DNA from: Patescibacteria group bacterium
Lineage (GTDB): Bacteria > Patescibacteriota > Minisyncoccia > Phycocordibacterales > UBA9973
Direction: 5' to 3'
Length of the DNA: 64,000 bases
Assembly: GCA_040388575.1 (NCBI GenBank)
Contig: JAZKBO010000001.1
Coordinates: forward strand, 6,549-70,548
The notes beneath the pieces are model-generated. The model was not told the origin of the DNA. It searched no databases and saw nothing but the letters and a program-made list of their open reading frames with translations. Positions 21,514-64,000 of this stretch are shown here, in pieces. The position numbers and the translations under genes were made by a program. Every line of letters begins with the position of its first letter. Within the stretch, counting starts at the first letter, position 1.

Positions 21514-23559
21514 TTGTGCTATATTGGACAGGTGAGTACAGATATTCCGCATTTATTGGGTCTAAATAAAGAACAGAGGGAGGCGGCACTTCATATGAAG
21601 GGGCCGATTTTGATAGTGGCTGGCGCTGGGGCGGGTAAAACAAAGACTATCACTCATAGAATAGTGAATTTGATCAAGGAAGGCGTGGCGCCAGAGCAAA
21701 TCTTGGCAGTAACCTTTACTAATAAGGCTGCTAAAGAAATGCGGGAGCGGATAATACAAGCACTGGAAGATAACTTCGCCGGTGATCCTTTTACTCAGGT
21801 CCTCGGATCTCCGGGTCCCTATCCCGGCCAGACCGTTCCTAAAAGCATCACCGGCTTCGTAAAAAGCCAACCTTTTGTCAGCACTTTTCACTCTCTGGGG
21901 GTGCATATAATCAAGGAAAATGCAGGGTTATTGGGCTTAACCAAGTATTTTACGATTTTGGACGAGTCGGATTCAATTTCCATAATAAAAGAGGCTCAAA
22001 AGGAGCTCGGCATAGATCCGAAACAGTATGAACCCAAGAAAATAAAGGGTATTATCAGCCGGGAAAAGGGTAAATTCACCAATTTGGCGGATTATAGTGA
22101 GCGAGCAGGCGATTACATGGGTAAAATTGTGGCTCAGGTGTGGAATTTATATGAAAAGAAAAAAGCGCAAGAAAACAGCCTCGACTTTGATGATTTAATA
22201 TTAAAATCTACTAAATTACTGAAAGATGATGTAGAGGTGCGACAAATGTATCAGGATAGGTGGCAATATATCCACATAGATGAGTATCAGGATACAAATG
22301 AGGTGCAATATTTGATGTCCCGGCTCTTGTCAGAAAAATACAAAAACATCTGCGTGGTGGGGGATGCAGATCAAAATATTTATTCCTGGCGCGGGGCAAA
22401 TTTGAAAAATATTTTAAGCTTTGAGAAGGATTATCCGAATGCCAAGATTGTACTATTGGAGGAAAATTACCGCTCCACTCAAAACATATTGGAGGCGGCT
22501 AATGAAGTAATCAAAAAAAATAAGTATCGCCCTGATAAAAATTTATTTACTAAAAATTTAGTGGGAGATAAAATTTCCATCTATGAAGCATTGGATGAAA
22601 CTGATGAAGCCGAATTCGTAGCAACAAAACTTTTGGAAATTGCCGACGTAGTCGAGAAAAAAGGCTTCGCTTTGAGTGAAATTGCAGTTTTGTATCGTGC
22701 GAATTTTCAATCACGCGCGCTGGAAGAAGCGATGCTGCGATACAATATTCCATATCAGGTGCTGGGTGTTAAATTTTTCGAAAGAAAAGAAATTAAAGAC
22801 ACGTTGGCATATCTGCGCGCAGCATTAAATCCGGAGAGCTTGTCCGACATAAAAAGAATAATAAACTTTCCAACTAGGGGAATTGGTAAGACCACTATTG
22901 CTAAGATTTTTTCTAACGATATGGAAAGTCTACCGATAAAAATGAGGCTGAAAATTAATAATTTCTATAATTTATTAACTGAAATAAAAGAAAAAATTGA
23001 GGTACTACCTGCGAGCCAAGTGATAAAATTTGTAGTTAAACGCTCCGGAATTGAGGATGAATTAAGTGCTGGGGACGAGGAAGAAAAGGAAAGATTGGAG
23101 AACATAAAAGAGCTTGCAACCTTGGCACTCAAATATGAAAATTTGCCAAATAGTGCTGGAATTGAAAGGCTTTTAGAGGATGCGGCCCTAGCCTCTGACC
23201 AGGATTCCTTGATCGAGCGCGGTGAAAAAAAGGAAGTAAAAGATGCGGTTAAACTAATGACGGTGCATGCATCTAAGGGGCTAGAATTTAAAAATGTTTT
23301 TATCACTGGCCTGGAAGATGGGCTCTTCCCGCATTCGAAGAACGGTGAAATAAAAAATGCTGAAGACAGCGAGGAGGAGCGCAGATTATTCTATGTAGCG
23401 CTCACTCGAGCAAAAGAAAAATTATATTTATCCTTTGCAAACTTCCGCACAATATTCGGCTCACGCTCGATTAACGCGCCGTCAGAATTTCTAGGCGACA
23501 TCCCTGCAGACTTACTAGAAAAAGAAGGCGAACAGAAAATTAAAACCATCTACATCTAG
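21514..23559 (+). CDS. uvrD: UvrD/PcrA-family ATP-dependent DNA helicase
   Basis: Motif I 'AGAGAGKTKTITHRI', 'VTFTNKAAKEMRERI', motif II 'IHIDEYQDTN', 'VGDADQNIYSWRGA'. Carries the in-frame ~60-bp element (copy 1). Confidence 0.9.
   Translation: MCYIGQVSTDIPHLLGLNKEQREAALHMKGPILIVAGAGAGKTKTITHRIVNLIKEGVAPEQILAVTFTNKAAKEMRERIIQALEDNFAGDPFTQVLGSPGPYPGQTVPKSITGFVKSQPFVSTFHSLGVHIIKENAGLLGLTKYFTILDESDSISIIKEAQKELGIDPKQYEPKKIKGIISREKGKFTNLADYSERAGDYMGKIVAQVWNLYEKKKAQENSLDFDDLILKSTKLLKDDVEVRQMYQDRWQYIHIDEYQDTNEVQYLMSRLLSEKYKNICVVGDADQNIYSWRGANLKNILSFEKDYPNAKIVLLEENYRSTQNILEAANEVIKKNKYRPDKNLFTKNLVGDKISIYEALDETDEAEFVATKLLEIADVVEKKGFALSEIAVLYRANFQSRALEEAMLRYNIPYQVLGVKFFERKEIKDTLAYLRAALNPESLSDIKRIINFPTRGIGKTTIAKIFSNDMESLPIKMRLKINNFYNLLTEIKEKIEVLPASQVIKFVVKRSGIEDELSAGDEEEKERLENIKELATLALKYENLPNSAGIERLLEDAALASDQDSLIERGEKKEVKDAVKLMTVHASKGLEFKNVFITGLEDGLFPHSKNGEIKNAEDSEEERRLFYVALTRAKEKLYLSFANFRTIFGSRSINAPSEFLGDIPADLLEKEGEQKIKTIYI
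21788..21846 (+). mobile_element. Copy 1 of a ~60-bp GC-rich repeat with inverted ends, inserted in frame in uvrD (encodes '...TQVLGSPGPYPGQTVPKS...')
   Basis: Core 'CAGGTCCTCGGATCTCCGGGTCCC...GGCCAGACCGTTC' shared with copies at 53230, 61323 and 63574. Ends cttttacTCAGG / CCGTTCctaaaag are inverted. Confidence 0.7.
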
Positions 23560-23564
23560 AATAT

Positions 23565-24423: not shown

Positions 24424-25320
24424 TTGATCGTGGCCGCGGTGGTTTTTCTTATCGTAATTTTTTCTATAAAAGGGCGCTCGGTATTTAATAATAACTCTTC
24501 CGATACAGGACTTTCAGATGGACTTAAGTACGACAGCTCTATCGTGGAAAATTTGGTGAGTAAAGATAGCGATAAAGATGGTGTACCAGACTGGGAGGAG
24601 GGTTTATGGGGCACAAATCCTAATAACAAGGACAGTAATGGTGATGGAGTGACCGATGATAAAGAAATTGCCAAGTTAAAAGCAGAATTAAAACAAAATA
24701 CGGATGGTTTAGTGGAGGATCCTAATTCAACGGGAGCTAGTCTAACTCAAACAGATAAATTCTCACAAGAATTGCTAACAACTTTGGCTGCAATAAATCA
24801 AACTGGTGACATGGACCCCGCTACAGCTCAAAAGTTGGGGGAAACTTTAGCAACACAGATAGAAAATTCGGCACCAAAGAAGGTTTACGGTGCGGGCGAT
24901 ATTAAAATAACAAAAGATGATAGTGCCGCAGCTATCCAAAAATATAACGAGGCTTTGGATAGCATTACTAGAAAATATCCAGCCAGCGGGAGCGCCATGG
25001 ATGTACTGCAGAAGTTCGCTGCCGATCAAAACAACGAGGATACAACAGTACTCTCGGAACTTGACCCGATAGTTACCCAAACAAATCAAATTATTGCTGG
25101 AATAGTTAAAACGAGCGTACCGCAATCATTAGCATCACTGCACTTAGCTTTTATAAATAGCTTGGAGAAGGTGTCGGAGAATCTAAATGACATCCAGCTT
25201 TACAATACGGATGCTGTCGTAGCCTTGGCAGCTATTAGTCAGTACGAGCAAAATACTGCAGATCTACAGGCGGCAGTGGACAACCTATCGAGTACCATTA
25301 ATCAGAAGTTGAGTAGCTAA
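24424..25320 (+). CDS. Membrane-anchored protein with thrombospondin-type-3-like Ca-binding Asp repeats
   Basis: N-terminal TM segment. 'DSDKDGVPDWEE' and 'DSNGDGVTDDKE' repeats. Confidence 0.5.
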   Translation: MIVAAVVFLIVIFSIKGRSVFNNNSSDTGLSDGLKYDSSIVENLVSKDSDKDGVPDWEEGLWGTNPNNKDSNGDGVTDDKEIAKLKAELKQNTDGLVEDPNSTGASLTQTDKFSQELLTTLAAINQTGDMDPATAQKLGETLATQIENSAPKKVYGAGDIKITKDDSAAAIQKYNEALDSITRKYPASGSAMDVLQKFAADQNNEDTTVLSELDPIVTQTNQIIAGIVKTSVPQSLASLHLAFINSLEKVSENLNDIQLYNTDAVVALAAISQYEQNTADLQAAVDNLSSTINQKLSS

Positions 25321-25345
25321 AAAGGCTTATAGATAAAGGATAAAA

Positions 25346-28300
25346 ATGAACTTTAAGAATCCACGAATTCAAAAGCTAACTTCCGCCCTCTTGGTTATTG
25401 CCGTTCTCGTTCCAGTATTATTATTTTTTTCAGCGCCTAAAAAAGTGGAGGCTCAAGGCTCTGGCTGGCCTCAATTTGTTCAGCTTGTTCTCATTGGAGG
25501 CAGTACGGGAAAATCACAGGTCACAGGGACAGCTTCGTTGGCTATCCAAATAAGACAGCAAGCCAAATTAGTGCTGGCTGAAGTATTGAAAGGCATCGCT
25601 CGCAGGCTTCTACAACAGATGACCAAGAGTACCATCAACTGGATCAATTCCGGTTTCCACGGCGCGCCGCTTTTCGTAGAAAATCCAAAATCATTTTTTG
25701 GTGATATTGAAAAGTATGAGGTAAGGAATTTCGTGGATCAGATCGGCTACGACTCCCTGCGGTTTCCATTCGGCAAAACTACCGCTTTAAATATCATTAA
25801 TACGTTCCGCCGCAGCCCAACCGCAGGATTAGAATACACTTTAAGTAACGTAATAAACGATCCGGTTTATCTAGAAAATTATAGAAATAATTTCAATGTC
25901 GGCGGCTGGAATGGCTTCCTAATAAATACCCAGTATCCGCAAAATAATGCAATTGGCTTCCGATTACTTGCAACTGAAGAAATATCTAAGAGGTTAGATA
26001 TAAATGACATCCACACAAATGCGGGGCAGATACAAAACACTCTCAATCAAGGACTTGGATTCCTCTCACCGCAAACCTGTCCATCTAATCCAAAATATAA
26101 TAATTTACAGAATCAATTTAATCAGCCAACATTTAAGTCTACAACTCCTTGGAATCCACCTCCAGAAATTAGCGACCAATGGAGCCCAGATGAGTACCCC
26201 GCTATACTCCAGCATTATACAGATACTTACAATCAAACAGTTGCAAATGAACGTGCAGACTGGCTTAGAAGTACAGGTTGCCCAGGCGGCTTGGTTAATA
26301 CTACCCCAGGATCTGCAGTAGGCGCAGCGCTCAATAAAGCCCTCGGCGGAAGCCAGGATCAAACCACGCTTGCAGCGGCAATGGGTAATAGTGTTTCCCA
26401 GATTGTGGACAGCCTCCTAAATCATTTCTTGCAGAAAGGCTTAAATGCACTCTCAAGCACAGTTAATCCACCCAAGCCCGTGGATGATTGGAGTTACGAC
26501 GGCCAGTCCCTCGGTACAGACATACCATCTAACAGTAGTGCTTGGGATGCGGGCCCAGATGAACTCGTGGTACTTGCTGACTTTAAACAAGGAGTAGTCG
26601 ACGGTATAAAAAATACTCAGGAGGAAATTGGCTTGATGGATAATAGAAATCCAAAAAATCCTGGCATCATTCAGGAAATAAACTTGATCTGGCCGCAAAT
26701 CAGGCAGCTCGACCAGTGTATTCCGGGTCCGGATGTAAAATGGGGAGATCGTTTGCAAACTGAGTGGGAAAGAAATGACCAAAAGTTCCAAGAGAAGGCA
26801 AGTGATCAAAATGGCGAAAAGGCTGCGCTGGCTAGAATCGCAAGCCAGGAATTGCAATATGCTGTCAAATCTTTTGAGGATTGGATAAAAAATAAAATGA
26901 TCCTCGCATTACCTGACTCCGTCAACTACATTGATGCAGTAGATGGTGCACTTGATCCGCTGAACAATCAGTCGAATGATTTATTGAATAGTAAAAGGGT
27001 CAGAATCCAATCATTAGCAAGATTGCAGTCCATTCAAGCAAATTTAAATCGCTTTACGACCGATCCTGCACCGAACTCAGGCGCAGCACAAGCCTTAATA
27101 AATCTATACAAGCAATACAAAGCAGTTCGACCAACAATATCGAGTAGTGAGAGTATCGAAGACTCCCGAAATGAACTCAACATGTTGAAAGAGCAATTGG
27201 TTAGTACGATAGATATGACCAAGCAATGTAAAACTGAAAGAACCCAGAACGGCTGGGGGCCAATAGACACGTCAGGCAAGGGCGGGGCCAGGGCTCCAGG
27301 CTCACAATCAGGACCATCTTCTACCCCATCCATATTCGGGGGGTCATCAGCACCATCGAGATCAACTGAAAAAGGATATTTCTGTGATAGCCCGATAGTG
27401 GGTGGATTTTCGCACGGCGAAGCCACTGTTACTTCTGGGGCTTTTGGTTTTAACAGCACTAATGATGAAGTGTTATTTAAACAACGAACTACTCCGCCTG
27501 CATATGGTAATGAGTTGCCGATGGTAAACGCTAGCAACGTTCCTTATAGCTGGGGAATTTTAGGGGACAAGAGGACTAATGTTGAGGTCAACTGCAAAAT
27601 ATTATTCAAGGCCAGTGTGCTCGATTACAAAGGAAGCATTAATGGGCTGACCACCATAAGTGATAATGGTGGAGGTGGTGCAGGATCAGGCTCTGGTGGT
27701 ACATGTGTTGATACAGGTCCGGCAACTCCACCAAAAATTGCGGCACCTACTAGTGTCTGGAATCCACCACCACAAACTATGGTGCCGGGGACCATCCATC
27801 CAGAAGCTTTGGTCAACAACGGCTGGTGGCCTCACTTATCACCAGATGGAAAATTCGTAGCCTATGGCAACTTCGGCGGCAGTTGGGTAAGCAACCTTTT
27901 AACTAAAAAAACTTACGACCTTACAAACCCGCCTGGTTTGCCGGCGGGGGGACGATGTTACAGTGGTTTTTGGTTACAAGATAGCAGCGTGATTTCAGAG
28001 TGGTGTGAAATCCCAGGAGGGGATTACTACAATCGATACATATGGACATACAATACTAGCCAGGACACTTGGACATCAACACCAACTGGCGAGAATCCTA
28101 ACCTTGTGGCAGGAAATTATTTCGGGGCAGATAAGGGCCACTGGTTCTCAGAATTGGCAGGCAAGAGAATAGTACTAGACGGCAAAGTCCTAGCGACTAC
28201 TCCACCTCCAGGCACAACCTCTGACCCTAACGACGTAGCTGGTTCGGCAATGGTCGGAACATCTATCTCTCAAGATGGTGATACCATCGTTCATGCTTGT

Positions 28301-29368
28301 AATAATACAAATCAGCAAATATGTGTATGGCATGGGTCTACTCTTGCCAACATTTATGATGTGCAAACACCAAACTATGGCACCACCACTTTAAATGGCT
28401 ACATTCTGTACGGCTTCAATGGCCCACTGCATGGTATCACTCCAGATGGTGAAGATGTGGACCTTACTGTTGCGCCTGGGGGGTTTGAACAGACCGGCAG
28501 GTTGTTTATGGTGAATGGTCAGCTTTGGGTGGCGTCCGGTGGTTATGAAAATCTAGGAACCGACACGGAAAAAGGATATGTGTTCCTAAGGCCTTGGGGC
28601 AGCCAGTCTGCCATAGCAGTAGCGGCAGATGTGGGCCGCGACCAATTGAGTGTGGCTGTTTCGGGTTCTAATTTTGTGATCGCGACTACCGAGGTAGTGG
28701 CAGGAACTTTAACAGTTCAAACTATACCGATAAATTCACCTCGAGGAGCTTTAGGAAATACTTGTACAACGGGGGACACCAGCGGTGACACGAGTGGGGA
28801 TGGTACTGGCACGGATGATGGTACCGGAACTGACACTTCACTTACGGGAGATGGAAGCACTTCCACCAGTGACCTTTCCTATGGCTCTCCAGCTCCAAGC
28901 ACTTCGACACCAACTCCAGCACCAGCACCGACAAAAAATCCAAGTTCAAGTACTGACTCCCAAATTTCATACAACACATATTCAGGCACAAGTCCTATCA
29001 CCAGTTCTGGCACTACTAGAATATTTGCCACTCAACCTTCCGGCGGTGGTAGTGGATCCCAATCAACCTCTTACAATAGCAACACTGGGACAAACCCAAC
29101 TTCAGGTGGAAGCACGAATGGTGACTTCGGTGGAAGTACGAGCGGAACTTCATATGATGACAGTGGCAGTAGAAGCTTCACAGTAACTCCAACGCCAAGT
29201 AACAACAGTGCACAAGAACCGCTTTACACCAACCAAGCAGGGGAAAATACTCCGAACGCGCCAGCAGCTACCGGCGGTAGTTCAAAGTGGTGGATTATTC
29301 TGGGAGTAATTTTCCTGGTGGCAATAGCAATGTTCGTGTGGTGGAGAATGCGAAATAGAAATCATTAA
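25346..29368 (+). CDS. Giant (1340 aa) cell-surface protein: signal peptide, Ser/Thr/Gly-rich low-complexity stalk, C-terminal TM anchor
   Basis: Signal peptide 'LLVIAVLVPVLLFFSAPKKVEA'. C-terminal 'WWIILGVIFLVAIAMFVWWRMRNRNH'. STG-rich repeats over 28740-29290. Confidence 0.6.
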   Translation: MNFKNPRIQKLTSALLVIAVLVPVLLFFSAPKKVEAQGSGWPQFVQLVLIGGSTGKSQVTGTASLAIQIRQQAKLVLAEVLKGIARRLLQQMTKSTINWINSGFHGAPLFVENPKSFFGDIEKYEVRNFVDQIGYDSLRFPFGKTTALNIINTFRRSPTAGLEYTLSNVINDPVYLENYRNNFNVGGWNGFLINTQYPQNNAIGFRLLATEEISKRLDINDIHTNAGQIQNTLNQGLGFLSPQTCPSNPKYNNLQNQFNQPTFKSTTPWNPPPEISDQWSPDEYPAILQHYTDTYNQTVANERADWLRSTGCPGGLVNTTPGSAVGAALNKALGGSQDQTTLAAAMGNSVSQIVDSLLNHFLQKGLNALSSTVNPPKPVDDWSYDGQSLGTDIPSNSSAWDAGPDELVVLADFKQGVVDGIKNTQEEIGLMDNRNPKNPGIIQEINLIWPQIRQLDQCIPGPDVKWGDRLQTEWERNDQKFQEKASDQNGEKAALARIASQELQYAVKSFEDWIKNKMILALPDSVNYIDAVDGALDPLNNQSNDLLNSKRVRIQSLARLQSIQANLNRFTTDPAPNSGAAQALINLYKQYKAVRPTISSSESIEDSRNELNMLKEQLVSTIDMTKQCKTERTQNGWGPIDTSGKGGARAPGSQSGPSSTPSIFGGSSAPSRSTEKGYFCDSPIVGGFSHGEATVTSGAFGFNSTNDEVLFKQRTTPPAYGNELPMVNASNVPYSWGILGDKRTNVEVNCKILFKASVLDYKGSINGLTTISDNGGGGAGSGSGGTCVDTGPATPPKIAAPTSVWNPPPQTMVPGTIHPEALVNNGWWPHLSPDGKFVAYGNFGGSWVSNLLTKKTYDLTNPPGLPAGGRCYSGFWLQDSSVISEWCEIPGGDYYNRYIWTYNTSQDTWTSTPTGENPNLVAGNYFGADKGHWFSELAGKRIVLDGKVLATTPPPGTTSDPNDVAGSAMVGTSISQDGDTIVHACNNTNQQICVWHGSTLANIYDVQTPNYGTTTLNGYILYGFNGPLHGITPDGEDVDLTVAPGGFEQTGRLFMVNGQLWVASGGYENLGTDTEKGYVFLRPWGSQSAIAVAADVGRDQLSVAVSGSNFVIATTEVVAGTLTVQTIPINSPRGALGNTCTTGDTSGDTSGDGTGTDDGTGTDTSLTGDGSTSTSDLSYGSPAPSTSTPTPAPAPTKNPSSSTDSQISYNTYSGTSPITSSGTTRIFATQPSGGGSGSQSTSYNSNTGTNPTSGGSTNGDFGGSTSGTSYDDSGSRSFTVTPTPSNNSAQEPLYTNQAGENTPNAPAATGGSSKWWIILGVIFLVAIAMFVWWRMRNRNH

Positions 29369-29369
29369 A

Positions 29370-31703
29370 ATGCGAAAATTTTTACCATTCATTTTAATAC
29401 TGGCAGTCTTGATGGGAACTTTCAGCCCAGCTATTAGTCCACGTGTCCAGGCATCCTCACAGAATCCGAACGAAAATTGTGTATATGGAGTTGGTGGAAT
29501 AATTCAAAATCGCCCTTGTCATGAAGTTAATCCTGGTACTGCACCTGTAGCTGGTAATGCTGGCGCAGATCAAAATGCAGTAGCATGTACCCCAGATGCA
29601 ACCGGAAAAATACCAGCTGGATGTAACCCAAACACAAAGAGTACTGATGTATATAGTAATATCGGCTGTGACTCCATAATGAGTGCAAGTGTGCTGGCAT
29701 GCCTGACCCGTGTAGTACAATTCTTTTTCATTACTCTGCCCAGTTTACTTACTACAATATCCGCCAGAATGTTCGACTTCCTAGCTGGGCTGACTTTGAG
29801 TAGTGAAATGTATAAATTCGACTTCATTGGAAATATTTGGGTTATTGTTAGAGACTTTTCCAATATTGCATTTATTCTGGTCCTGTTATATGCAGCCTTT
29901 CAAATGATTTTAGGTCTAGGGCACAGTGAAACAAAAAAGCTAATTGCTGGGGTTGTGGTGATGGCACTGATGGTTAACTTCAGTTTATTTTTCACCAGAG
30001 TGGTGGTGGACTCCGGTAATATTTTAGGACTTATTTTTTACAATAGAATTATAGTAGATGGAGCGCCGGAAGACCCTATCGCCGACCCAGGGGCAACTAA
30101 AGTGCAAGAAAAAAGTATCTCGAGGGCAATTGCTAATAGATTTGACATTACCAAAGTTCTAAACGCTGGAAGCTTCAAGACTGAAACAACAGCATCTGGA
30201 ACGGGTACTTTGGGTGCAGCGGGGGCGGGATGTGCTGCGGGTGCATTCCTTTTGGGTGTGGGTTGTGTAGGGGGGGCAGTTGTGGGCGGGCTATTTGGAT
30301 ATTTATTTTTAGGCTCAGAAACCTTAACTAATGAAAGCTACCTTTCCATAATGGGAATAATGGTTGCGTACGGATTGATATTGTATATGCTGGCATACTC
30401 CTTCCTAGTAGCGGCTTTTAGCTTCCTTGCCAGAATGCTGACACTGATCATGCTTATGGTCGTCTCGCCTTTTGCGTTTGTAAGTTATGCTGTGCCGGGC
30501 CTGAAGAAAATAGGCAAGGTAGGCTTTGATAGTTGGCTTTCCTCTCTTTTGTCAGCATCATTCATGGGAGCAGTGTTTATGTTCATACTTTATGTAGTTA
30601 CAACTATAATGAAGGCGGACATATTCACTCAAATATCGAAAAAAGATTTGCTTACGACTAACCCTGTAGGCTGGCTAGTGGTTGTTTTCGTCCCATCCAT
30701 CATGATTTGTATGCTCCTCCTAGCTGGAACTAAATATGCAAAAAAGGCATCGGGGGAAATTACGGGTGTGGTGATAAATGGAGCGAAAGTGTTAGCAGGA
30801 CTTGCAGTAGGCGGTGCGGCACTAGGAACTGCTGGAATACTAAGAGGTACCGTAGGTGCAGTTATGAAAAAATCTTCAACGGGAGATATTGCAGCTAATA
30901 GAATTGGTCAAAATCAGGCAAGAATTGCAGCTAATCAAGCCATCCTTAATAACGCAGCTACTCCTTGGTCTGCACGAGTTAAAGCTCGTACTGAAATAAG
31001 AAAAGCGAATGCGGATATAAGATTAGGAAATGTACAAAATGCAATAGGAATAGGCGATGCACAGCGAGCTATTGGTAGACAACTTAATGCTGACCAGCAA
31101 GGTGTAGCGCAGGCCGAACATGCTCGACGCGACCTCGACCAAATGGCAAGTAACATAACACACGGTAAAAAGAAAACATGGGAAGAATTAAATGGTGAAG
31201 AAAGAAGACAAGGTAGGAGGGATGTTGAGAGAGACAGGGAAAGAAGAGCACTGGGTTTTGGAAATGTAACTTGGGCAAACCTTAATCCTAACGTACAGGC
31301 TACGATTGATGCAGCGGTAAATCCACGCCTTGCAGCTGGCCAGACTTGGGTTGATCAACATATATTACCTGAGGCGATGAGAAAACAAGGTTCAGTGAGT
31401 AATTTTGTTCAGTCTACAGTTACTGGAAGTTATGATGTTCGTGGCCTAGCAAAAGTAATTGCAAAAGAACAAAGTACTGGCTTTGCAAAACTTACAATGG
31501 GCTTGACTGGAGCAATAGCAATGGGCATGCGGGGAGGATTTAAACAGCTTGGAGTTAATTATGGTGAGCCTCAACATGCTTTCTTGAAAGACCTAGGCCA
31601 TACAATTACTGAGGCATTAAAGAGCATGAAGGTTAATGTTGACCTTTCACACGTCGGTGAGCAGAAAAAGGAAGGGGATAAAGGTGGAGGTGGACATCAT
31701 TAA
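29370..31703 (+). CDS. Polytopic membrane protein, VirB6/TrbL-like component of a T4SS-like cluster
   Basis: Signal peptide, Cys-containing extracytoplasmic domain, then at least 6 TM helices and a long hydrophilic tail. Lies upstream of the VirB3/VirB4-like genes. Confidence 0.45.
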   Translation: MRKFLPFILILAVLMGTFSPAISPRVQASSQNPNENCVYGVGGIIQNRPCHEVNPGTAPVAGNAGADQNAVACTPDATGKIPAGCNPNTKSTDVYSNIGCDSIMSASVLACLTRVVQFFFITLPSLLTTISARMFDFLAGLTLSSEMYKFDFIGNIWVIVRDFSNIAFILVLLYAAFQMILGLGHSETKKLIAGVVVMALMVNFSLFFTRVVVDSGNILGLIFYNRIIVDGAPEDPIADPGATKVQEKSISRAIANRFDITKVLNAGSFKTETTASGTGTLGAAGAGCAAGAFLLGVGCVGGAVVGGLFGYLFLGSETLTNESYLSIMGIMVAYGLILYMLAYSFLVAAFSFLARMLTLIMLMVVSPFAFVSYAVPGLKKIGKVGFDSWLSSLLSASFMGAVFMFILYVVTTIMKADIFTQISKKDLLTTNPVGWLVVVFVPSIMICMLLLAGTKYAKKASGEITGVVINGAKVLAGLAVGGAALGTAGILRGTVGAVMKKSSTGDIAANRIGQNQARIAANQAILNNAATPWSARVKARTEIRKANADIRLGNVQNAIGIGDAQRAIGRQLNADQQGVAQAEHARRDLDQMASNITHGKKKTWEELNGEERRQGRRDVERDRERRALGFGNVTWANLNPNVQATIDAAVNPRLAAGQTWVDQHILPEAMRKQGSVSNFVQSTVTGSYDVRGLAKVIAKEQSTGFAKLTMGLTGAIAMGMRGGFKQLGVNYGEPQHAFLKDLGHTITEALKSMKVNVDLSHVGEQKKEGDKGGGGHH

Positions 31704-31714
31704 AAAATAAAAAT

Positions 31715-32749: not shown

Positions 32750-32750
32750 T

Positions 32751-33224
32751 ATGCAATTCAAAGTACCACAATTTTTAGAAATAGAAGACAAGATATTTGG
32801 TCCTTTTACCTTCAGGCAATTTATTTACCTTATCGGTGGGGCAGGGGTATGCTTCGTCCTATATAGACTACTAGGATTCTGGTGGGGGGTTCTGCCTATT
32901 ATACTTTTGGCTGCTTTTTCTTTAGCACTAAGCTTCTACAAACCAAACAATAAACCATTTATCTTCATGGTTGAAGCTGCTTTCCATTATACATTACAAA
33001 GTAAATTGTATATCTGGAAAAAACCAGAGAATAGAGAGCGGAATAAAAAGGAAGAGGGAAGGGCAGCAGATAAAGCGGACAAAGCGCAGCAGGATTTTTA
33101 CGCAGCCATGGGTGGTGGTAAATTAAGTGGTAGTAAATTGCGGGATCTGGCGTGGAGTTTAGACGTGCTGGATTTAAATAAGCAGTCGAGTAATACCGGA
33201 GGGGAACCGATAATGAGGAAATAA
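32751..33224 (+). CDS. Small two-TM membrane protein, VirB3-like (by position and topology)
   Basis: 157 aa with two adjacent hydrophobic helices, immediately upstream of VirB4-like ORFs. Confidence 0.4.
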   Translation: MQFKVPQFLEIEDKIFGPFTFRQFIYLIGGAGVCFVLYRLLGFWWGVLPIILLAAFSLALSFYKPNNKPFIFMVEAAFHYTLQSKLYIWKKPENRERNKKEEGRAADKADKAQQDFYAAMGGGKLSGSKLRDLAWSLDVLDLNKQSSNTGGEPIMRK

Positions 33225-33238
33225 TATATAATAAAATT

Positions 33239-33889: not shown

Positions 33890-33897
33890 ATAAATTT

Positions 33898-35814: not shown

Positions 35815-35839
35815 AGTTTTACGTGATATAATTAAACCA

Positions 35840-47998: not shown

Positions 47999-48007
47999 CT
48001 AAACAAA

Positions 48008-48033: not shown

Positions 48034-48171
48034 GTGGTCTTTGTCGGGGTCGTCGTCGGTATCCTCATCAAATCTAAAGTCATTGATGGCACCCTCCTCT
48101 AAGGGTTCCAGTAATTCATCATCACCGTCGCCCTCTACTTTAAACCCTGCATCGTCATCGTCGTAACTCAT
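48031..48171 (-). CDS. Possible 46-aa highly acidic small protein
   Basis: Hand-translated 'MSYDDDDAGFKVEGDGDDELLEPLEEGAINDFRFDEDTDDDPDKDH'. The stop overlaps the terminator stem. No homology support. Confidence 0.25.
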   Translation of the reverse strand: MSYDDDDAGFKVEGDGDDELLEPLEEGAINDFRFDEDTDDDPDKDH

Positions 48172-52269: not shown

Positions 52270-54720
52270 ATGAAAAAGAATGATAAAAAGAGCTCGCAGA
52301 CGCTGGTTTTGCTGGATGCGCATGCCATAATTCACCGCGCATACCATGCCTTGCCGGACTTCATGTCATCTCGCGGGGAGCCTACCGGGGCCCTGTATGG
52401 ACTTTCGAGTATGTTGATGAAGATTATCCCAGAGCTAAAACCGGATTACATAGTGGCTTGTTATGATTTGCCGGGGAAAACCTTTCGGCATGAGGCCTAT
52501 GATGATTATAAGGCTGGCCGAGCTAAGACGGATGAAGCCCTCATAGCTCAATTGAAAAAGTCTAGGCAGATTTTCGAGGCTTTTAATATACCCATTTACG
52601 ACGCTCCCGGATTTGAAGCGGATGACGTGCTCGGCACCATTGTAGAAAAATTAAAAAAAGATAAAACCAAAAATATTATCATCGCCTCGGGAGACATGGA
52701 CACCATGCAGCTGGTAGATGATAAAAAAGTGCAGATATATACATTGAAAAAGGGGATTACAGACACCATTTTATATGATGAGGACAAAGTAGTAGAGAGG
52801 TTTGGCTTTAAGCCATTACTTTTGCCAGACTATAAAGGCTTGCGTGGAGACCCGTCTGACAACATTATTGGTATTAAGGGCATAGGTGAAAAAACTGCCA
52901 CTACGCTCATTACCCAATTTGGCACCATTGAGGAAATTTATAAAAAAATTAAGAAGGAACCGGAAAGTTTTGCTAAAGCAGGGTTAAGCCCACGACTAAT
53001 TGAGCTTATTAAAAATAATGAAGAAGAGGCTATTTTTTCCAAAACTCTAGCAAAAATACGACGTGATGCGCCAGTAGACTTCAAAATACCAGACAAAACA
53101 TTCTGGGAAGCCGCCGATCTTAAAAAAATTGAAAAGATGTTTGCAGATTTTGAATTTCGATCCCTCTTTACTCGCTTGAAAAACTTTTTCGGCAAAGGCG
53201 AGAAGCAAAACCCGGGAGCGAATTTAGCAGAATTTTCTCAGGTCCTCGGATCTCCGGGGCCCCACACCCCGGCCAGACCGTTCCAAAATTCTCTAAATTC
53301 GCTCCCGGAAAAAAAAGTTGACGCTACTAAACTTCAAGAAGCGAGTATCGCCTTGTGGCTTATTAATTCCGACATAGCCAACCCGACATTGGAGGATATT
53401 TTTCTTTTTTCTAGAACTGAAGTATTCGAAGATGCGTACGAATTTATTTTTAAAAAGTTAAAGGAGAATAACTTAACCCTGGTATATGAAGAAATAGAAA
53501 AACCAATAATGCCTGTGGTGGAGGCAATGCAGGACTACGGAGTTTTGATTGATCAAAAATATTTTGAAAAACTATCTACAGAATATCATAAAGAGCTGGA
53601 CCTACTAACGGCTAAGATTTATAAAATGGCGGGAACGGAGTTCAATATCAACTCGCCCAAGCAATTAGGGGAGGTGCTATTCGGCAAAATGGGCTTGAAA
53701 ACTAAGAAGAAAGGAGCAAATGGGGCATTCTCGACCAAGATTTCAGTCTTAGAAGAGCTAGAAGAAGGCAACCCAATCATTAGTGAAATCATGGCTTACC
53801 GCGAGCTTCAAAAGTTACTTTCAACCTATATCGATGTCATCCCGAAGATGGTATCTCCCGATGGACGCTTGCATGCTAAGTTTATCCAAAATGGGTCTAC
53901 TACCGGCAGATTTTCTTCCCAAGATCCGAATTTGCAAAATTTACCAATCAAAAGTGAACTCGGTAAAAGAATCCGCGGTGGGTTCGTGGCGGCAAAGGGC
54001 TATAAACTTTCAGCTTTTGATTACAGCCAGATTGAACTGCGAGTTGCGGCGATGCTCTCGGGTGATAAAAACATGACTCAAATTTTTAAAGATAGGAAGG
54101 ACATTCATGCGGGTGTAGCCTCCCGCGTTTTCGGCGTGCCGATAGATAAAATAGATGCGGAAATGCGTCGTCAAGCAAAAGTTATAAACTTCGGTATCAT
54201 TTATGGCATGGGCGTTACTGCACTGCGTAAAAACTTGGGTGGCACCCGTGAAGAAGCGCAAAAATTTTACGATAATTACTTCAATCAATTTTCTGGCGTT
54301 AGGGAATACATGGAAGAAGTTAAAAAGTTTGCAGTTGAGCATACATATACTGAGACGTTGTTTGGTAGGCGTAGATATTTCCCCAACATTCGATCCCGAA
54401 TTCCATTCCTAAAAAATATGGCAGAGCGTACTGCTACTAATGCACCACTACAAGGTACCGCTGCGGATATTATCAAGCTGGCTATCAGATATGCCAATGA
54501 AGATATTATAAAAGCTGGGTTACAAGACAAGGTCCACCTCATACTTCAAATCCACGATGAGTTGGTATATGAAATAAAAGACGAGGCATTAAGTGAAGCT
54601 GACGCAATAATAAAAAAAGCCATGGAGGCTGTGTTGCAAAGCTCATATTTGCATTACAAAACCGATATTCCACTCATTGTTCACTCCGGTTCCGGCAATA
54701 ATTTAGAGGAGGTAAAATAG
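52270..54720 (+). CDS. polA: DNA polymerase I (5'-nuclease plus polymerase domains; short, 3'-5' exo region likely reduced)
   Basis: 5'-nuclease 'LLDAHAIIHRAYHA'. Pol motifs 'DYSQIELR', 'RRQAKVINFGIIYG', 'QIHDELVYE'. Carries in-frame element copy 2. Confidence 0.9.
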   Translation: MKKNDKKSSQTLVLLDAHAIIHRAYHALPDFMSSRGEPTGALYGLSSMLMKIIPELKPDYIVACYDLPGKTFRHEAYDDYKAGRAKTDEALIAQLKKSRQIFEAFNIPIYDAPGFEADDVLGTIVEKLKKDKTKNIIIASGDMDTMQLVDDKKVQIYTLKKGITDTILYDEDKVVERFGFKPLLLPDYKGLRGDPSDNIIGIKGIGEKTATTLITQFGTIEEIYKKIKKEPESFAKAGLSPRLIELIKNNEEEAIFSKTLAKIRRDAPVDFKIPDKTFWEAADLKKIEKMFADFEFRSLFTRLKNFFGKGEKQNPGANLAEFSQVLGSPGPHTPARPFQNSLNSLPEKKVDATKLQEASIALWLINSDIANPTLEDIFLFSRTEVFEDAYEFIFKKLKENNLTLVYEEIEKPIMPVVEAMQDYGVLIDQKYFEKLSTEYHKELDLLTAKIYKMAGTEFNINSPKQLGEVLFGKMGLKTKKKGANGAFSTKISVLEELEEGNPIISEIMAYRELQKLLSTYIDVIPKMVSPDGRLHAKFIQNGSTTGRFSSQDPNLQNLPIKSELGKRIRGGFVAAKGYKLSAFDYSQIELRVAAMLSGDKNMTQIFKDRKDIHAGVASRVFGVPIDKIDAEMRRQAKVINFGIIYGMGVTALRKNLGGTREEAQKFYDNYFNQFSGVREYMEEVKKFAVEHTYTETLFGRRRYFPNIRSRIPFLKNMAERTATNAPLQGTAADIIKLAIRYANEDIIKAGLQDKVHLILQIHDELVYEIKDEALSEADAIIKKAMEAVLQSSYLHYKTDIPLIVHSGSGNNLEEVK
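53230..53291 (+). mobile_element. Copy 2 of the ~60-bp GC-rich inverted-end repeat, in frame in polA (encodes '...SQVLGSPGPHTPARPFQNS...')
   Basis: Same core as the other copies. Ends GAATTTTCTCAGG / CCGTTCCAAAATTC are mutually inverted. Confidence 0.7.
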
Positions 54721-60507: not shown

Positions 60508-63183
60508 ATGAAAAAGCAAGAAAATATAGATAAAATAACGATAAAGGGAGCCAGAACGCACAACCTAAAGAATGTGGATGTGGAAATGCCACGCAATAAA
60601 ATGATTGCGATTACGGGCGTTTCAGGGAGTGGCAAAAGCTCACTCGCTTTTGATACAATTTTCGCCGAAGGGCAACGCAGATATGTAGAGTCGCTATCTT
60701 CTTACGCACGCCAATTTCTAAACCAAATGCCTAAGCCGGATGTGGATGAAATAACTGGCCTCTCACCAGCAATTTCTATCGATCAAAAATCTCGCTCCAA
60801 TAACCCGCGTTCCACGGTGGCTACAATTACAGAAATTTATGATTACCTTCGCGTCATGTACGCACGTATCGGGCACCCACATTGCCCTATCTGCGGCGAG
60901 GAGATTAAAAAGCTTTCGAATGAGCAAATCCTTAATTTTATTTTAGATAAAGTAAAAACTTTTGAAAAAGGTAAGAAAAGAAAAGTTATGGGTGTAGAGT
61001 GGGATGAAACGGAGATAAGTATTTACTCGCCGGTGGTGCGCGGCAGGAAAGGGGAATATTATCAATTGCTGTACGATTTACTCGGGAAAGGATTTTCTGA
61101 AATTCGCCTTGATGGCGTAAAAAAGAAGCTCCGCGAGCAAATCACCCTTTCTAAGAATAAAGCGCACAATATTGATATCCTTGTGGATCATTTTGCAGTG
61201 CATGAATTTACAGACAATAAAGAAAGCAGCCGGATGCGCTTGGCGGAAGCTGTGGAAAGGGCGCTTATTGAGTCTGATGGATTGGTAACAATTGCTTTCG
61301 GTAATCCTGCGCAGAAGAACACCTTTTCTTCAGGTCCTCGGATCTCTGGGTCCCTCCCCCAGCCAGACCGTTCAGAAAAGCTTTCTTCTGCTCCGGAAGA
61401 GTTCGTTATGTCCGCCAAATTTGCCTGCAAGAATGATGGCTTTTCTTTTCCAGAAGTGGAGCCGCGCCTTTTCTCTTTCAACTCACCTTACGGTGCGTGT
61501 CCTGCATGTAACGGCCTCGGTACAAAATATTTCGGCGGCGATGAACCATGTGAATCTTGCCATGGTGCCCGCCTGCGCCCGGAGGCACTAAATGTTTTCA
61601 TTTCTACCGGGCATACTCGCAAAAATATTCTGGATTTAGCGGAGCTATCAATTGCTGACGCTCATGAATTTTTTAAAAATCTTAAACTTTCCGACCAAGA
61701 AAAGGAAATTTCCGTGCCAGTGGTGAAGGAGATTGAAGCCCGGCTGGAGTTCATGCTCGATGTTGGACTCGACTATTTACAGTTATCTCGTAAGGCTAAC
61801 ACGCTCTCGGGCGGGGAAGCCCAGAGAATAAGGCTGGCTTCCCAACTGGGCTCTAGGCTCGTAGGGGCACTATATGTGCTGGATGAGCCTACGATTGGAC
61901 TACATCAGCGGGACAATGACCGCTTAATAAAAACCTTGCTGCATTTGCGCGACTTAGGGAACACAATTTTAATTGTGGAGCACGATGAAGACACAATTTA
62001 CGCTTCGGATTACATAGTGGACATCGGGCCTAAGGCCGGAGTGCATGGGGGTAAAATAATTGTCTCTGGATATTTAGATGAGCTTCTAACTGCCAAAAAG
62101 AATACAAATAATTCTAGAACTCTCGCATACTTGCGAGGTGAAGAAAAAATAGAAGTACCTAAAAAACGCCGGGAAGCTAAGGGTCAGTTGCGAATCGTTG
62201 GCGGTAAAGCATTTAATATTAAAAATATGAATGTGGAAGTGCCGCTTGGCGTGATGACTTCTATCACTGGCGTGTCAGGCTCGGGTAAAAGCTCCTTAAT
62301 GTATGAAATTTTATATAAAAACCTACAAGCACGTTATGAGCGCAAGTATCGTACTGCTCAAACATTCAATTGTGCGAGTTTTTCAGGGACAGAATACTTA
62401 ACAAGAGCAATTTTGATCGATCAGTCACCAATTGGCCGCACACCGCGCTCCAATATTGCAACCTACACTGGAACTTTTACACACATTCGTGATTTGTTTG
62501 CCACTACTGAAGAAGCGCGGCTACGTGGCTGGAAGGCAAACCGCTTTTCTTTCAATGTTCGTGGTGGCCGCTGTGAAGCGTGTGAAGGTAATGGTGAGAT
62601 AGCAGTAGAGATGCACTTCCTGCCCACGGTTTACGTTACCTGTGATGTTTGTGATGGTAAACGCTTTGATAAAGAAACTTTGACGGTAAAATACAAAAAG
62701 AAAAATATTTATGAAGTGTTAAAAATGACAGTGGAAGAGGGGCTTACATTCTTTAAAGATATCCCAGCTGTTTCTGATAGATTACAAACACTCATTGATG
62801 TGGGGCTGGGCTACCTCGAGCTCGGGCAGAGCGCCACCACACTCTCGGGTGGGGAAGCGCAGCGAGTAAAAATCTCCAGCGAGTTATTCCGTCCTCATTA
62901 TGAAAAGACCATTTATTTACTGGATGAGCCCACAGTAGGGCTACATTATGACGATGTGCAAAAGCTCCTGGAAGTGCTCAATAAGCTTGTAAACAAAGGG
63001 CATACCGTCGTCTTGATCGAACACAACCTCGACATAGTTAAAAGCTCGGATTACATTATAGACATAGGGCCCGAGGGAGGCGTAAAGGGTGGGCACTTGG
63101 TAGCAAAAGGTACACCAGAGGAAGTGGCCAATAATCCTAAAAGTTATACCGGAAAGTATCTTAAAAAGGTATTGAGGAAATGA
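60508..63183 (+). CDS. uvrA: Excinuclease ABC subunit A
   Basis: Two ABC modules ('GVSGSGKSSLAFDT', 'LSGGEAQRIRLA', 'GVSGSGKSSLMYE', 'LSGGEAQRVKIS') and zinc modules. Carries in-frame element copy 3. Confidence 0.95.
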   Translation: MKKQENIDKITIKGARTHNLKNVDVEMPRNKMIAITGVSGSGKSSLAFDTIFAEGQRRYVESLSSYARQFLNQMPKPDVDEITGLSPAISIDQKSRSNNPRSTVATITEIYDYLRVMYARIGHPHCPICGEEIKKLSNEQILNFILDKVKTFEKGKKRKVMGVEWDETEISIYSPVVRGRKGEYYQLLYDLLGKGFSEIRLDGVKKKLREQITLSKNKAHNIDILVDHFAVHEFTDNKESSRMRLAEAVERALIESDGLVTIAFGNPAQKNTFSSGPRISGSLPQPDRSEKLSSAPEEFVMSAKFACKNDGFSFPEVEPRLFSFNSPYGACPACNGLGTKYFGGDEPCESCHGARLRPEALNVFISTGHTRKNILDLAELSIADAHEFFKNLKLSDQEKEISVPVVKEIEARLEFMLDVGLDYLQLSRKANTLSGGEAQRIRLASQLGSRLVGALYVLDEPTIGLHQRDNDRLIKTLLHLRDLGNTILIVEHDEDTIYASDYIVDIGPKAGVHGGKIIVSGYLDELLTAKKNTNNSRTLAYLRGEEKIEVPKKRREAKGQLRIVGGKAFNIKNMNVEVPLGVMTSITGVSGSGKSSLMYEILYKNLQARYERKYRTAQTFNCASFSGTEYLTRAILIDQSPIGRTPRSNIATYTGTFTHIRDLFATTEEARLRGWKANRFSFNVRGGRCEACEGNGEIAVEMHFLPTVYVTCDVCDGKRFDKETLTVKYKKKNIYEVLKMTVEEGLTFFKDIPAVSDRLQTLIDVGLGYLELGQSATTLSGGEAQRVKISSELFRPHYEKTIYLLDEPTVGLHYDDVQKLLEVLNKLVNKGHTVVLIEHNLDIVKSSDYIIDIGPEGGVKGGHLVAKGTPEEVANNPKSYTGKYLKKVLRK
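61323..61384 (+). mobile_element. Copy 3 of the ~60-bp GC-rich inverted-end repeat, in frame in uvrA (encodes '...FSSGPRISGSLPQPDRSEKLSS...')
   Basis: Near-identical to copy 4 including the ends CTTTTCTTCAGG / CCGTTCAGAAAAGCTTT. Confidence 0.75.
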
Positions 63184-64000
63184 AATCTGAATTTTTAAAA
63201 AAACAGAACAAAGGAAAAGGTTTGCCAGACAAGCCCGGAGTGTATTTCTTTTTGCAAGATAAAAAAATAATCTATATTGGTAAAGCTACATCACTGCGGA
63301 GCCGGACCAAAAGTTATTTTAGTCCGGATTTAATAAATACTCGCGGGCCGGTAACACTAGAGATGGTATTCAAGGCCAATAATATTAAATGGCAGGAGAC
63401 GGATTCCGTATTAGAAGCGTTAATCCTCGAAGCGAACCTGATAAAAAAATACCAACCTTATTACAATATTAAAGAAAAGGATGATAAAAGTTGGAACTAT
63501 GTTTGCATAACTCGTGAAAAATTACCCAAAGTTCTTATTCTTCGTGCTAAGCAGCTCGTGATCTTCAAAGGAAAAAGCTTTTCTTCAGGTCCTCGGATTC
63601 CTGGGTCCCTCCCCCAGCCAGACCGTTCAGAAAAGCTTTATTCCTTCTCCGCTTGTTACGGTCCGTATACTAGCGGTCCGCAACTACAGGAAGCAATGAA
63701 GATAATTAGGCGGATTTTTCCATACCTGGATGATAAAAGTAAAAATTATCTGCAATTTTATAAACAAATTGACCTAGTGCCGGACCTAGAGGATAGAAAA
63801 AAATATTTAAGAAATATTAAAAACTTAAAACTATTCTTCGAAGGAAAGAAAAAAAGAATTTTGAGTAATCTTAAAAAAGAAATGAAAGCTTATGCCAAAG
63901 TGCGTGCTTTCGAAAAAGCAGGGGAAGTAAAGAAACAAATTTTTGCACTCGAGCACATTAATGATGTTGCACTCCTTAAAGAGGATAAAAATATAACTTC
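63180..64000 (+). CDS. uvrC: Excinuclease ABC subunit C, N-terminal part (continues beyond the window)
   Basis: ATG overlaps the uvrA stop (ATGA). GIY-YIG 'KPGVYFFLQDKKIIYIGKATSLRSR'. Carries in-frame element copy 4. Confidence 0.9.
   Translation, partial: MKSEFLKKQNKGKGLPDKPGVYFFLQDKKIIYIGKATSLRSRTKSYFSPDLINTRGPVTLEMVFKANNIKWQETDSVLEALILEANLIKKYQPYYNIKEKDDKSWNYVCITREKLPKVLILRAKQLVIFKGKSFSSGPRIPGSLPQPDRSEKLYSFSACYGPYTSGPQLQEAMKIIRRIFPYLDDKSKNYLQFYKQIDLVPDLEDRKKYLRNIKNLKLFFEGKKKRILSNLKKEMKAYAKVRAFEKAGEVKKQIFALEHINDVALLKEDKNIT
63574..63639 (+). mobile_element. Copy 4 of the ~60-bp GC-rich inverted-end repeat, in frame in uvrC (encodes '...FSSGPRIPGSLPQPDRSEKLYS...')
   Basis: AAAGCTTTTCTTCAGGTCCTCGGATTCCTGGGTCCCTCCCCCAGCCAGACCGTTCAGAAAAGCTTT with perfect 11-bp terminal inverted repeats. 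Confidence 0.75.

Follow-up and report, generated by a model that had tools for sequence, protein, structure and literature searches.

A 64,000-nucleotide stretch of a Patescibacteria group bacterium genome (assembly GCA_040388575.1, contig JAZKBO010000001.1, positions 6,549 to 70,548; hereafter the window, numbered from its first letter) carries four copies of a palindromic element inside genes for DNA repair and replication enzymes. On balance, we take these copies to belong to a new family of short, non-autonomous hairpin repeats, similar in kind to the Rickettsia palindromic elements (RPEs), that resides in the housekeeping genes and gene junctions of one Patescibacteria clade. The family comprises at least 160 copies. 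Its members have a hairpin tip in common and a stem that differs from locus to locus, with the two arms of each stem remaining complementary to each other. Within genes the element keeps the reading frame of its host.

Results

Copies in the window and across genomes

Exactly four copies are present in the window, all on the + strand as direct repeats, and the invariant blocks TCAGGTCCTCGGAT and GCCAGACCGTTC each occur four times. A covariance model search of the window returned the four at E-values of 6e-17 to 2e-14; the next match, at E = 0.36, was an unrelated terminator-like hairpin. By NCBIfam identification their hosts are PcrA/UvrD, DNA polymerase I (PolA), UvrA and UvrC, each entered in frame on the + strand. 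The hairpins are about 80-100 nt long, with stems of 16-24 bp that have a different sequence at each locus and an irregularity 7-12 bp from the tip in all four.

Copy 1 (AGDPFTQVLGSPGPYPGQTVPKSITG; 21778..21855, +) is 78 nt or 26 codons long, scores 84.4 bits with the covariance model and interrupts the PcrA/UvrD helicase (open reading frame (ORF) 21514-23559, +) between helicase motifs Ia and Ib. Its 16-nt arms (21778-21793 and 21840-21855) form an inverted repeat of 94% identity with one mismatch, enclosing the conserved tip TCAGGTCCTCGGATCTCCGGGTCCCTATCCCGGCCAGACCGTTC (21795..21838, +). Copy 2 (53212..53308, +; ~97 nt; 78.1 bits) is found in the linker that follows the 5'-3' exonuclease domain of DNA polymerase I (ORF 52270-54720, +); the arms at 53212-53227 and 53293-53308 pair perfectly over 16 nt and, with an inner 8 bp, give a 24-bp stem with one bulged C. 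Relative to copies 3 and 4, its tip (53238-53283) differs by -1, -1 and +2 nt, so that the frame is kept. Copy 3 (61311..61391, +; ~81 nt; 73.5 bits), in frame in UvrA (ORF 60508-63183, +), shows weaker pairing out to 61295-61399. Its 22-nt arms (61305-61326 and 61376-61397) are 77% complementary, pairing over about 16-22 nt with an internal loop, and its tip is at 61330-61373 on the stem GCAGAAGAA[CACC/GCT]TTTTCT. Copy 4 (63568..63646, +; ~79 nt; 83.6 bits) follows the GIY-YIG domain of UvrC, whose ORF (+) starts at 63180 and runs beyond the window end; the 18-nt arms at 63567-63584 and 63629-63646 are 83% complementary with one bulge, around a tip at 63585-63628.

A reading of the window made earlier from its letters (the sequence-only reading) had observed that the left and right ends are reverse complements in every copy, and this holds over more bases than it claimed, with arms of 16-24 nt. 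It had also described copies 3 and 4 as nearly identical despite their different genes. They are indeed 94% identical over a 66-nt central unit (63574-63639 in copy 4) and 93% identical over 71 nt, one being in UvrA and the other in UvrC. No further copies or other insert families were detected in the window by an unfiltered covariance model search, a motif scan of the six-frame translations or an inverted-repeat scan; the inverted repeats at 14544-14636 and 25756-25827 are weak (z -1.5 and -2.1).

Scanning one genome per GTDB species with a pattern for the tip returned 118 loci. Eighty-two of these were chance matches at high G+C, and the other 36, in loci below 55% G+C, were copies of the element, all in Patescibacteria metagenome-assembled genomes (MAGs). 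A metagenome scan added 120 loci, giving a collected set of 160 copies (151 unique). In IMG/VR no true copies were found, the 28 pattern matches there being chance matches on high-GC contigs. The hosts of the collected copies are nearly all nucleic-acid enzymes: PcrA (16 copies), PolA (13), RsmA (12), the CCA-adding enzyme (11), PheT and MnmA (7 each), UvrA and LeuS (5 each), TsaD (4), RecJ and UvrC (3 each), UvrB and TrmD (2 each), YchF and Tgt (1 each), with 28 copies in others. In the window, repair and replication genes make up about one fifth of the coding DNA, yet all four copies are inside them. Though suggestive, this concentration was noted post hoc, and it would be sufficiently explained if the element is retained in proteins that are long, essential and multi-domain. 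Some loci are densely occupied, with copies in neighboring genes and in both orientations (three copies in 3.8 kb in L164, two in L198 and three in the pcrA-rsmA region of L120).

Pairwise identity among the PolA hosts, with those from MAGs labelled Saccharibacteria counted in, is 70-100% (median 75%), and judging from these identities the family appears to be confined to one fairly narrow Patescibacteria clade. A spread across classes of the Candidate Phyla Radiation (CPR) was considered and is not supported, as the PolA proteins of the MAGs labelled Saccharibacteria are 72-79% identical to the window PolA. The "uncultured Candidatus Saccharibacteria" titles of L073, L108, L002, L024 and others conflict with their sequences. 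For example, the L073 PolA is 72.6% identical to the PolA of the window and of Paceibacterota MAGs, and the labels of such co-assembly MAGs look unreliable.

Structure of the hairpin

Copies were gathered with an exact-match tip pattern that itself required the inner helices. The conserved tip, about 41-45 nt (TCAGGTCCTCGG...GCCAGACCGTTC), is seated on a T-run/A-run that is followed by the inverted-repeat stem, and every true copy among the 36 of the first scan folds as one long hairpin. In these folds the outermost part is a stem of 17-31 bp with locus-unique sequence, and the common T-run/A-run comes next. Proceeding inward on the given strand, the tip consists of an internal loop UCA/GUUC, a GGUC/GACC helix, a small asymmetric loop, a GG/CC helix, a bulge of 4-5 nt and an apical hairpin that occurs in several variants. 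On the complement strand the corresponding fold has a bulged C, GGUCU/GGACC, a GA bulge, GG/CC, a GA(G)AU bulge and a variable apical hairpin. The minimal unit is 66 nt or 22 codons, composed of the tip and an 11-nt arm on each side. Over the 160 collected copies the median ungapped stem is 18 bp (10-90% range 9-25 bp) and the hairpins are 80-110 nt long; folding z-scores reach as low as -5.

Those copies that were found by the model and not by the pattern show mild variation in the tip (GACCA, TCAAG, GGTTC, TCGGAGG). A miniature element in RecJ (L099:3097-3180) has a long perfect stem and a shortened tip, TTCGGGTCCTCGGAAAAAATCCCCAGACCACTC, and therefore the apical hairpin appears dispensable. 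The tip is conserved beyond coding needs. Between the window and L120, third codon positions are identical at 0.80 in the tip (15 codons) and at 0.46 in the PcrA host gene, a difference for which a binomial estimate gives P ~0.008.

Empty and filled sites

Orthologues of the window PcrA (61-80% identity) range from 643 to 752 aa and have up to three inserts. Among 120 of them, the copy-1 site is empty in 62, filled by this element in 39 and occupied by other inserts in 19. The empty site reads ...NAKGQDKIPFVST (peptide ...RERVIAEIEKNAKGQDKIPFVST), with the codon pattern ...AAA GGN CAA GAT AAA ATT CCN... in most orthologues, and as a rule there is no palindrome there; one empty site, in L119, happens to have GGAATTCC. 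In most filled alleles the net gain over the empty ones is 22 codons, made up of AATGCTTTTTC-tip-GAAAAAGCATT; this unit of 66 nt (the tip and two 11-nt arms) is also the one common to copies 3 and 4. Comparison of the empty GGN CAA GAT with the filled GGN [66 nt] CCN GAT shows no duplication, at one site and with about 46% third-position identity.

Similar stems recur at sites that are not orthologous: PcrA sites 1 and 2 share DNFVG[N/D]AFS...DSV, and the UvrB copy in L054 has a PolA-type stem. Such sharing suggests that the element is, or has been, mobile. Both proximal arms are within the 66-nt insertion, and similar stems are met at non-orthologous sites; the arms are therefore part of the element. 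What the sequence-only reading had called flanks is the proximal stem of the element itself, and recruitment of host codons seems limited to a few base pairs at the outer end. The idea in that reading of insertion into pre-existing short palindromes has to be given up, as the empty PcrA sites are mostly non-palindromic and the arms arrive with the insert. An origin of one arm as host sequence, by inverted target duplication, was also rejected for the proximal arms on the basis of the empty-site orthologues and the sharing of stems by non-orthologous sites.

Other families of in-frame inserts are found in the same two PcrA loops, at site 1 in L121 (699-903) and in the orthologues P0007, P0014, P0031, P0052, P0058 and others. 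They have the peptide signatures LERTLGRSDGDGQRKFSAENFRGESENI, RGVSQADEPRGSAPRARGDSDP, FSSLRPSRSTEWDPREAQNRKS, FSNGDVAEQDILRK and SGSLSPLASGALPLGSSACETPRQ and sometimes occur two or three in tandem. The L121 insert, which bears the first of these signatures (...LGRSDGDGQRKFSAENFRGESE...), is a long hairpin as well and has taken the place of the right arm and tip in a copy of the present element that was there earlier.

Covariation of the two arms

In the set of 36 copies, a copy's own left and right flanks form duplexes with a mean energy of -25.2 kcal/mol, whereas pairing flanks across copies gives -7.4 kcal/mol; in 34 of the 36, no foreign flank pairs better than the copy's own. In a fixed-register alignment, 23 of 24 stem pairs have changed on both sides and 80% of the cells are paired, compared with 56.7% in shuffles. 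The covariation score is 0.538 versus 0.138 in shuffles, of which 0 of 500 reach the observed value, and slid controls give 0.13-0.24. The proposal that compensatory changes preserve a long imperfect hairpin is thus supported.

Compensatory changes are visible among orthologous copies in 12 other PolA genes, where the stem alternates between TTTAG/CTAAA, TCCAG/CTGGA and TTCAG/CTGAA, and distally between GCGAA, ACAAA and GCAAA, each with its matching partner. The right arm of L089 repeats the left one as its reverse complement over 22 nt without a mismatch, and the allele has three codons more than those of the KSIPDSV type. The outer stem at PcrA site 1 takes up positions of host codons, and three codons on the host side differ from those of empty alleles (K>V opposite D, Q>P opposite G, I>V opposite N) in exactly the manner that lets them pair with conserved host codons on the other arm. 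These changes appear to represent growth of the stem into the gene.

The tip also occurs in both orientations at the same orthologous site, between homologous stems, in the CCA-adding enzyme, RsmA, MnmA, UvrA, TsaD, PheT and LeuS, and the flipped tips are also read in different frames at these sites. At the UvrA site of copy 3, for example, the window has SSGPRISGSLPQPDRS and L018 has SNGLAGGGTRGTEDLS with the tip reversed, and L170 and L197 use other frames. Given the lack of a G.U excess on the mRNA strand, the perfect arm copy in L089 and the tips flipped in place, arm-to-arm copying at the DNA level is at least as good a reading of the covariation as selection for an RNA fold.

The central 66 nt of copy 3 are 94% identical to those of copy 4 and 75-82% identical to orthologous UvrA copies. 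Its distal arm shows the opposite affinity (80% similar to UvrA orthologues, 60% to copy 4). This pattern is best read as gene conversion within the genome and not as a fresh insertion. The sequence-only reading had offered recent mobility or gene conversion for this pair; gene conversion is upheld, and recent insertion is not, as both loci are occupied in relatives and the central 66 nt alone are shared.

Reading frame and host proteins

The hosts of 120 of the 160 copies (88 sense, 32 antisense) are ORFs of at least 150 aa whose frame continues across the insert, and the other 40 copies are at gene junctions such as uvrA|uvrC and pcrA|rsmA. None of the 40 junction copies splits a gene, as the flanking ORFs never match the same gene family. 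The intragenic copies contain no stops and keep the host frame in 120 of 120. With the canonical tip, which is rich in G+C, five of the six frames are in use (three sense and two antisense); the remaining antisense frame would read the TCA of TCAGG as TGA. In L270 this third antisense frame is used, and there the tip has TCGGG in place of TCAGG, yielding the codon CGA.

Copies 1 and 2 read ...QVLGSPGP... and copies 3 and 4, one frame over, read ...SGPRISGSLPQPDRS..., and in all the same DNA is read four ways (QVLGSPGP..., SGPRISGS..., NGLAGGGT... and RSGRGRDP...). As the copies are read in different frames, it is a nucleic-acid element. A peptide motif was rejected, given that three sense frames and two antisense frames of this DNA are in use. 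An excised RNA would be free of constraints on frame and stops, and the element is therefore likely translated. It would then be read through, adding a loop of 22-32 residues that is rich in Gly, Pro, Ser and Arg, located in linkers and predicted to be disordered. If so, junction peptides such as ...FTQVLGSPGPYPGQTV... would be expected. An intron or intervening sequence was also considered and set aside, as the constraints on frame and stops hold in all intragenic copies and the stop is mutated away in L270.

Comparison with solved structures places the additional residues at the hairpin. Residues 85-110 of PcrA (26 extra) have no counterpart in structure 1pjr, and residues 263-296 of UvrA (34) stand where structure 9gxk has 5; both match the hairpin coordinates. 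In the AlphaFold model of the window PcrA, which is of moderate quality overall (mean predicted local distance difference test score, pLDDT, 65.6), residues 90-116 have pLDDT<50 and form coil between a confident helix and a confident strand. The window UvrA (891 aa, 60508-63183) is without the insertion domain of ~117 residues of the reference UvrA. Its residues 339-342 span residues 305-421 of the 9gxk chain, and the hairpin element is just upstream of this deletion.

Strand asymmetry

On the mRNA strand of the collected copies, G.U pairs are not enriched. Transition mismatches in the stem, scored on the TCAGG strand, are A.C in 86 cases and G.U in 25, alike in sense, antisense and intergenic copies. 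The bias persists when each stem cluster is counted once (60 versus 21) and among singleton loci (28 versus 6). On average the complement strand folds better by 5.2 kcal/mol for the whole hairpin (128 versus 22 copies) and by 2.2 kcal/mol for the arms alone. These values hint that the complement strand may be the one that folds, either as single-stranded DNA or as an RNA of its own. Since the stem mismatches are concentrated 5-9 bp from the tip, where the 11-bp proximal arm meets the distal stem, we treat the asymmetry as a lead, not a result.

Searches for known RNAs did not account for the element. At gathering thresholds, Rfam 15 finds nothing but tRNA-Lys in the window, and at E<=1 in five loci the sole match to the element is a spurious microRNA hairpin (29.9 bits against a gathering score of 99 bits). 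Signal recognition particle RNA, kink-turn, sarcin-ricin, hammerhead or hairpin ribozyme and bulge-helix-bulge intron were compared by eye and none fitted.

Neighboring sequences

There is no transposase in the window or beside the intergenic copies, the neighbors being assorted housekeeping genes. Likewise, neither the window nor a set of 79 ORFs flanking intergenic copies contains a Y1/HUH gene, such as the IS200/IS605-type TnpA suggested in the sequence-only reading, whole genomes not having been searched. Three further features of the window were noted. A perfect 18-bp inverted repeat with a 2-nt spacer, ACTAAACAAAACACCCCG/CGGGGTGTTTTGTTTAGT, at 47998-48035 (DNA fold z -6.9) begins at the last base of the stop codon of a Trp/Tyr-tRNA synthetase gene, with a convergent ORF facing it. 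Unrelated to the element, it resembles a bidirectional terminator. Large ORFs (1024, 298, 1340, 777, 344 ... aa) at 18427-21501 and 24424-39258 have no Pfam match at 1e-8. They surround a TraG/VirB4-like P-loop ATPase (33898-35814), and the run may be a secretion, conjugation or pilus-like block typical of CPR bacteria. Lastly, dnaA and dnaN adjoin at 41346-43926, where the cumulative GC skew, which rises monotonically across the window, does not turn; the replication origin may lie elsewhere, or the skew may be uninformative.

Discussion

Relation to known elements

By analogy, the closest known kind of element appears to be the RPEs. Like RPE-1 to RPE-8 (Ogata et al. 2000; PMC1458961, PMC1166351), it is a non-autonomous palindromic repeat of ~100 nt in a bacterium with a reduced genome, found between genes and in frame in conserved genes in a form compatible with translation, in surface or linker regions. 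The traits by which an RPE-like element would be known, namely a dispersed ~100-nt palindrome, in-frame and non-disruptive insertion and a position in loops or linkers, were all found here. The present element, however, is from another phylum, which keeps it out of the RPE families by taxon, and its consensus is probably unrelated. It further differs in being conserved at the tip, with a stem that is locus-specific and co-varies. To our knowledge, RPE copies can be aligned along their whole length, and neither flipping of the tip in place nor homogenization of a central 66-nt unit is known for RPEs.

Other small repeats match in part. The bacterial MITEs (miniature inverted-repeat transposable elements; Correia/CREE, ERIC, RUP, Nezha; PMC2229807, PMC10969869) are also small and non-autonomous, with inverted repeats that form long hairpins in transcripts and sometimes in ORFs. 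MITEs, however, have target-site duplications and conserved terminal inverted repeats that a transposase recognizes, whereas here the outer stem columns are without consensus and the conserved columns are central. Imperfect, bulged hairpins, possible strand-specific folding of single-stranded DNA and, at the one site compared, the lack of target duplication are features in common with the repetitive extragenic palindromes (REPs) and their mosaic elements (BIMEs) mobilized by REP-associated tyrosine transposases (RAYTs), and with palindrome-associated transposable elements (PATEs) derived from IS200/IS605 (PMC3733652). But REPs are 20-40 nt long, extragenic and marked by a GTAG/CGTC tag, while the present element is longer, intragenic and untagged; PATEs have two distinct subterminal hairpins (LE/RE) and TnpA, in contrast to its single symmetric hairpin.

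Coding palindromes in Nematomorpha mitochondria (PMC6649704) are long, near-perfect inverted repeats in translated sequence with both arms coding, and thus pairing and coding constrain the same sequence; the GC-cluster and hairpin elements of fungal and algal mitochondria are grouped here as well. Unlike the present element, which is an added loop, these are organellar, have no common conserved tip and encode conserved host protein in their arms. Integron attC sites are recombination-type hairpins with bulged bases and one preferred strand, for which structure matters over stem sequence. Their foot is conserved in the form of R''/R' boxes (RYYYAAC/GTTRRRY) and their tip varies, which is the reverse of what is seen here, where the foot is not conserved. 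In addition, attC sites are between cassettes beside an integrase, and the present element is in frame in housekeeping genes. Finally, template-switch (quasi-palindrome) mutagenesis (PMC8794818, PMC5453318, PMC3820800) produces double changes, arm copies and outward extension in single events, patterns that match L089 and PcrA site 1. As a mutational process, though, it leaves the conserved tip and the dispersal to many genes unexplained. Our literature search found no description of this element.

A possible history of the hairpins

Under the RPE-like reading, the arms would be kept complementary mostly by copying of one arm onto the other, either through template switching during replication or through conversion within the palindrome. 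There is precedent for template switching in making and maintaining hairpins (PMC8794818) and for extension of quasi-palindromes (PMC3820800). The same copying would push the stem outward into host codons. The tip would at times invert between the arms, and gene conversion would homogenize the central 66 nt among the copies of one genome. Selection probably purges copies that lose the fold, and the folded single strand is likely recognized by a trans-acting protein for spread or maintenance. As for the location in conserved genes, precise loss alone would be viable there, and the conserved flanks would permit spread by recombination after DNA uptake.

Several points weigh against this reading. 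No mobilizing enzyme has been identified, there being no transposase in the window or next to the intergenic copies, and no target-site duplication is evident. The search pattern itself accounts in part for the invariance of the tip in the set it found. If the filled PcrA orthologues form a single clade, as they may, the codon changes across the stem could amount to few events. The argument for translation is drawn from constraints on the reading frame. Lastly, the conservation of the tip and the strand asymmetry hint at a strand-specific function beyond a purely selfish and mutational model.

Alternative explanations

An HUH/Y1 enzyme encoded elsewhere in the genome, such as an IS200/IS605 TnpA or a RAYT-like protein, might mobilize the element as single-stranded DNA, the hairpin being its recognition structure and the element one of the PATE/REP type. 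Such an enzyme would fit a strand asymmetry that is intrinsic and independent of host-gene direction, with a complement strand that tolerates wobble and folds better, as well as a hairpin that is imperfect and has conserved bulges, and a PcrA site where, as in IS200/IS605, no target-site duplication is seen. However, besides the lack of a Y1/HUH gene in the sequences searched, the element is one long hairpin in which the tip is conserved, the foot varies and there is no GTAG/CGTC tag, unlike REPs and the IS608 ends, which have a conserved foot or tag. The asymmetry may instead reflect internal loops specific to the family, given where the mismatches cluster, and many loci look anciently occupied rather than like recent targets. 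We consider this explanation unlikely.

A functional structured RNA in the host mRNA, for instance a hairpin for regulation or RNase III processing, a ribozyme or a short sequence removed from the transcript like an intron, would attribute the covariation to selection on the RNA fold. Very strong stem covariation together with conserved unpaired and bulged tip nucleotides is the classic signature of such RNAs, the hairpins are thermodynamically significant (z down to -5), and sense copies are over-represented (88 versus 32, where open-frame numbers predict 72:48). But the element is found in both orientations, even at the same orthologous site, and also at gene junctions. On the mRNA strand A.C mismatches exceed G.U, and there is no Rfam match even at E<=1. 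The maintenance of frame without stops in 120 intragenic copies, with the stop mutated away in L270, would be needless were the RNA excised. Given the above, a structured RNA appears distinctly improbable.

The hairpin could also be a DNA signal that the host has adopted in its genome-maintenance and tRNA/rRNA-modification genes, whether for uptake or recombination, as a regulator site or as an invertible loop switch. The near restriction to nucleic-acid enzymes, including the four window copies in repair genes that fill ~20% of its coding DNA, the conservation of the tip beyond coding needs and the long occupancy of loci with the tip in either orientation are in keeping with a signal. Yet about half of the PcrA orthologues are empty at site 1, unrelated insert families occupy the same loops, and the density of 4 copies per 64 kb is low next to known uptake sequences. 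No partner protein is known, and the host bias can be explained by tolerance or retention in long, essential, multi-domain proteins. An adopted signal is thus very unlikely.

That the tip alone is mobile, entering pre-existing palindromes or making the stem by inverted target duplication so that the flanks are host sequence, is extremely improbable. In its favor, distal stems are locus-specific and conserved among orthologues whatever the tip orientation, the outer stem at PcrA site 1 lies in host codon positions and the empty site of L119 has its GGAATTCC. Against it, most empty orthologue sites are without a palindrome, two 11-nt arms are already part of the 66-nt net insertion, non-orthologous sites have long stems in common (the PolA-type stem in UvrB of L054; PcrA sites 1 and 2) and the whole hairpin is extra relative to the PcrA and UvrA structures.

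Implications

For a family of RPE-like hairpin repeats, the first consequence concerns annotation. The insertions explain why repair proteins, tRNA-modification enzymes and aminoacyl-tRNA synthetases of Patescibacteria jump in length by ~22-32 residues, a point to bear in mind when sequences of this group are aligned for phylogenomics, their structures predicted or their proteins engineered. The family is also a large natural dataset in which coding constraint and a long DNA palindrome co-evolve, with empty, filled, flipped and converted alleles at hand, and is a good system for studying the dynamics of template switching and gene conversion in genomes with reduced repair.

The conserved tip points to a hairpin-recognizing protein in CPR bacteria, one that could reveal a new mobilization or recombination activity. 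It is possible, though doubtful, that the element is a DNA module defined by its structure, with the bulged tip read on one strand by a Patescibacteria protein that drives cleavage and repair at the extruded hairpin. Such a module would explain together the homogenization and flipping of the tip, the re-perfection of the stem and its extension into host codons, and the long persistence in genes for genome maintenance and tRNA/rRNA modification. In bacteria reliant on DNA uptake, such an element would be either a homing-like hairpin or a signal for recombination or uptake adopted by the host.

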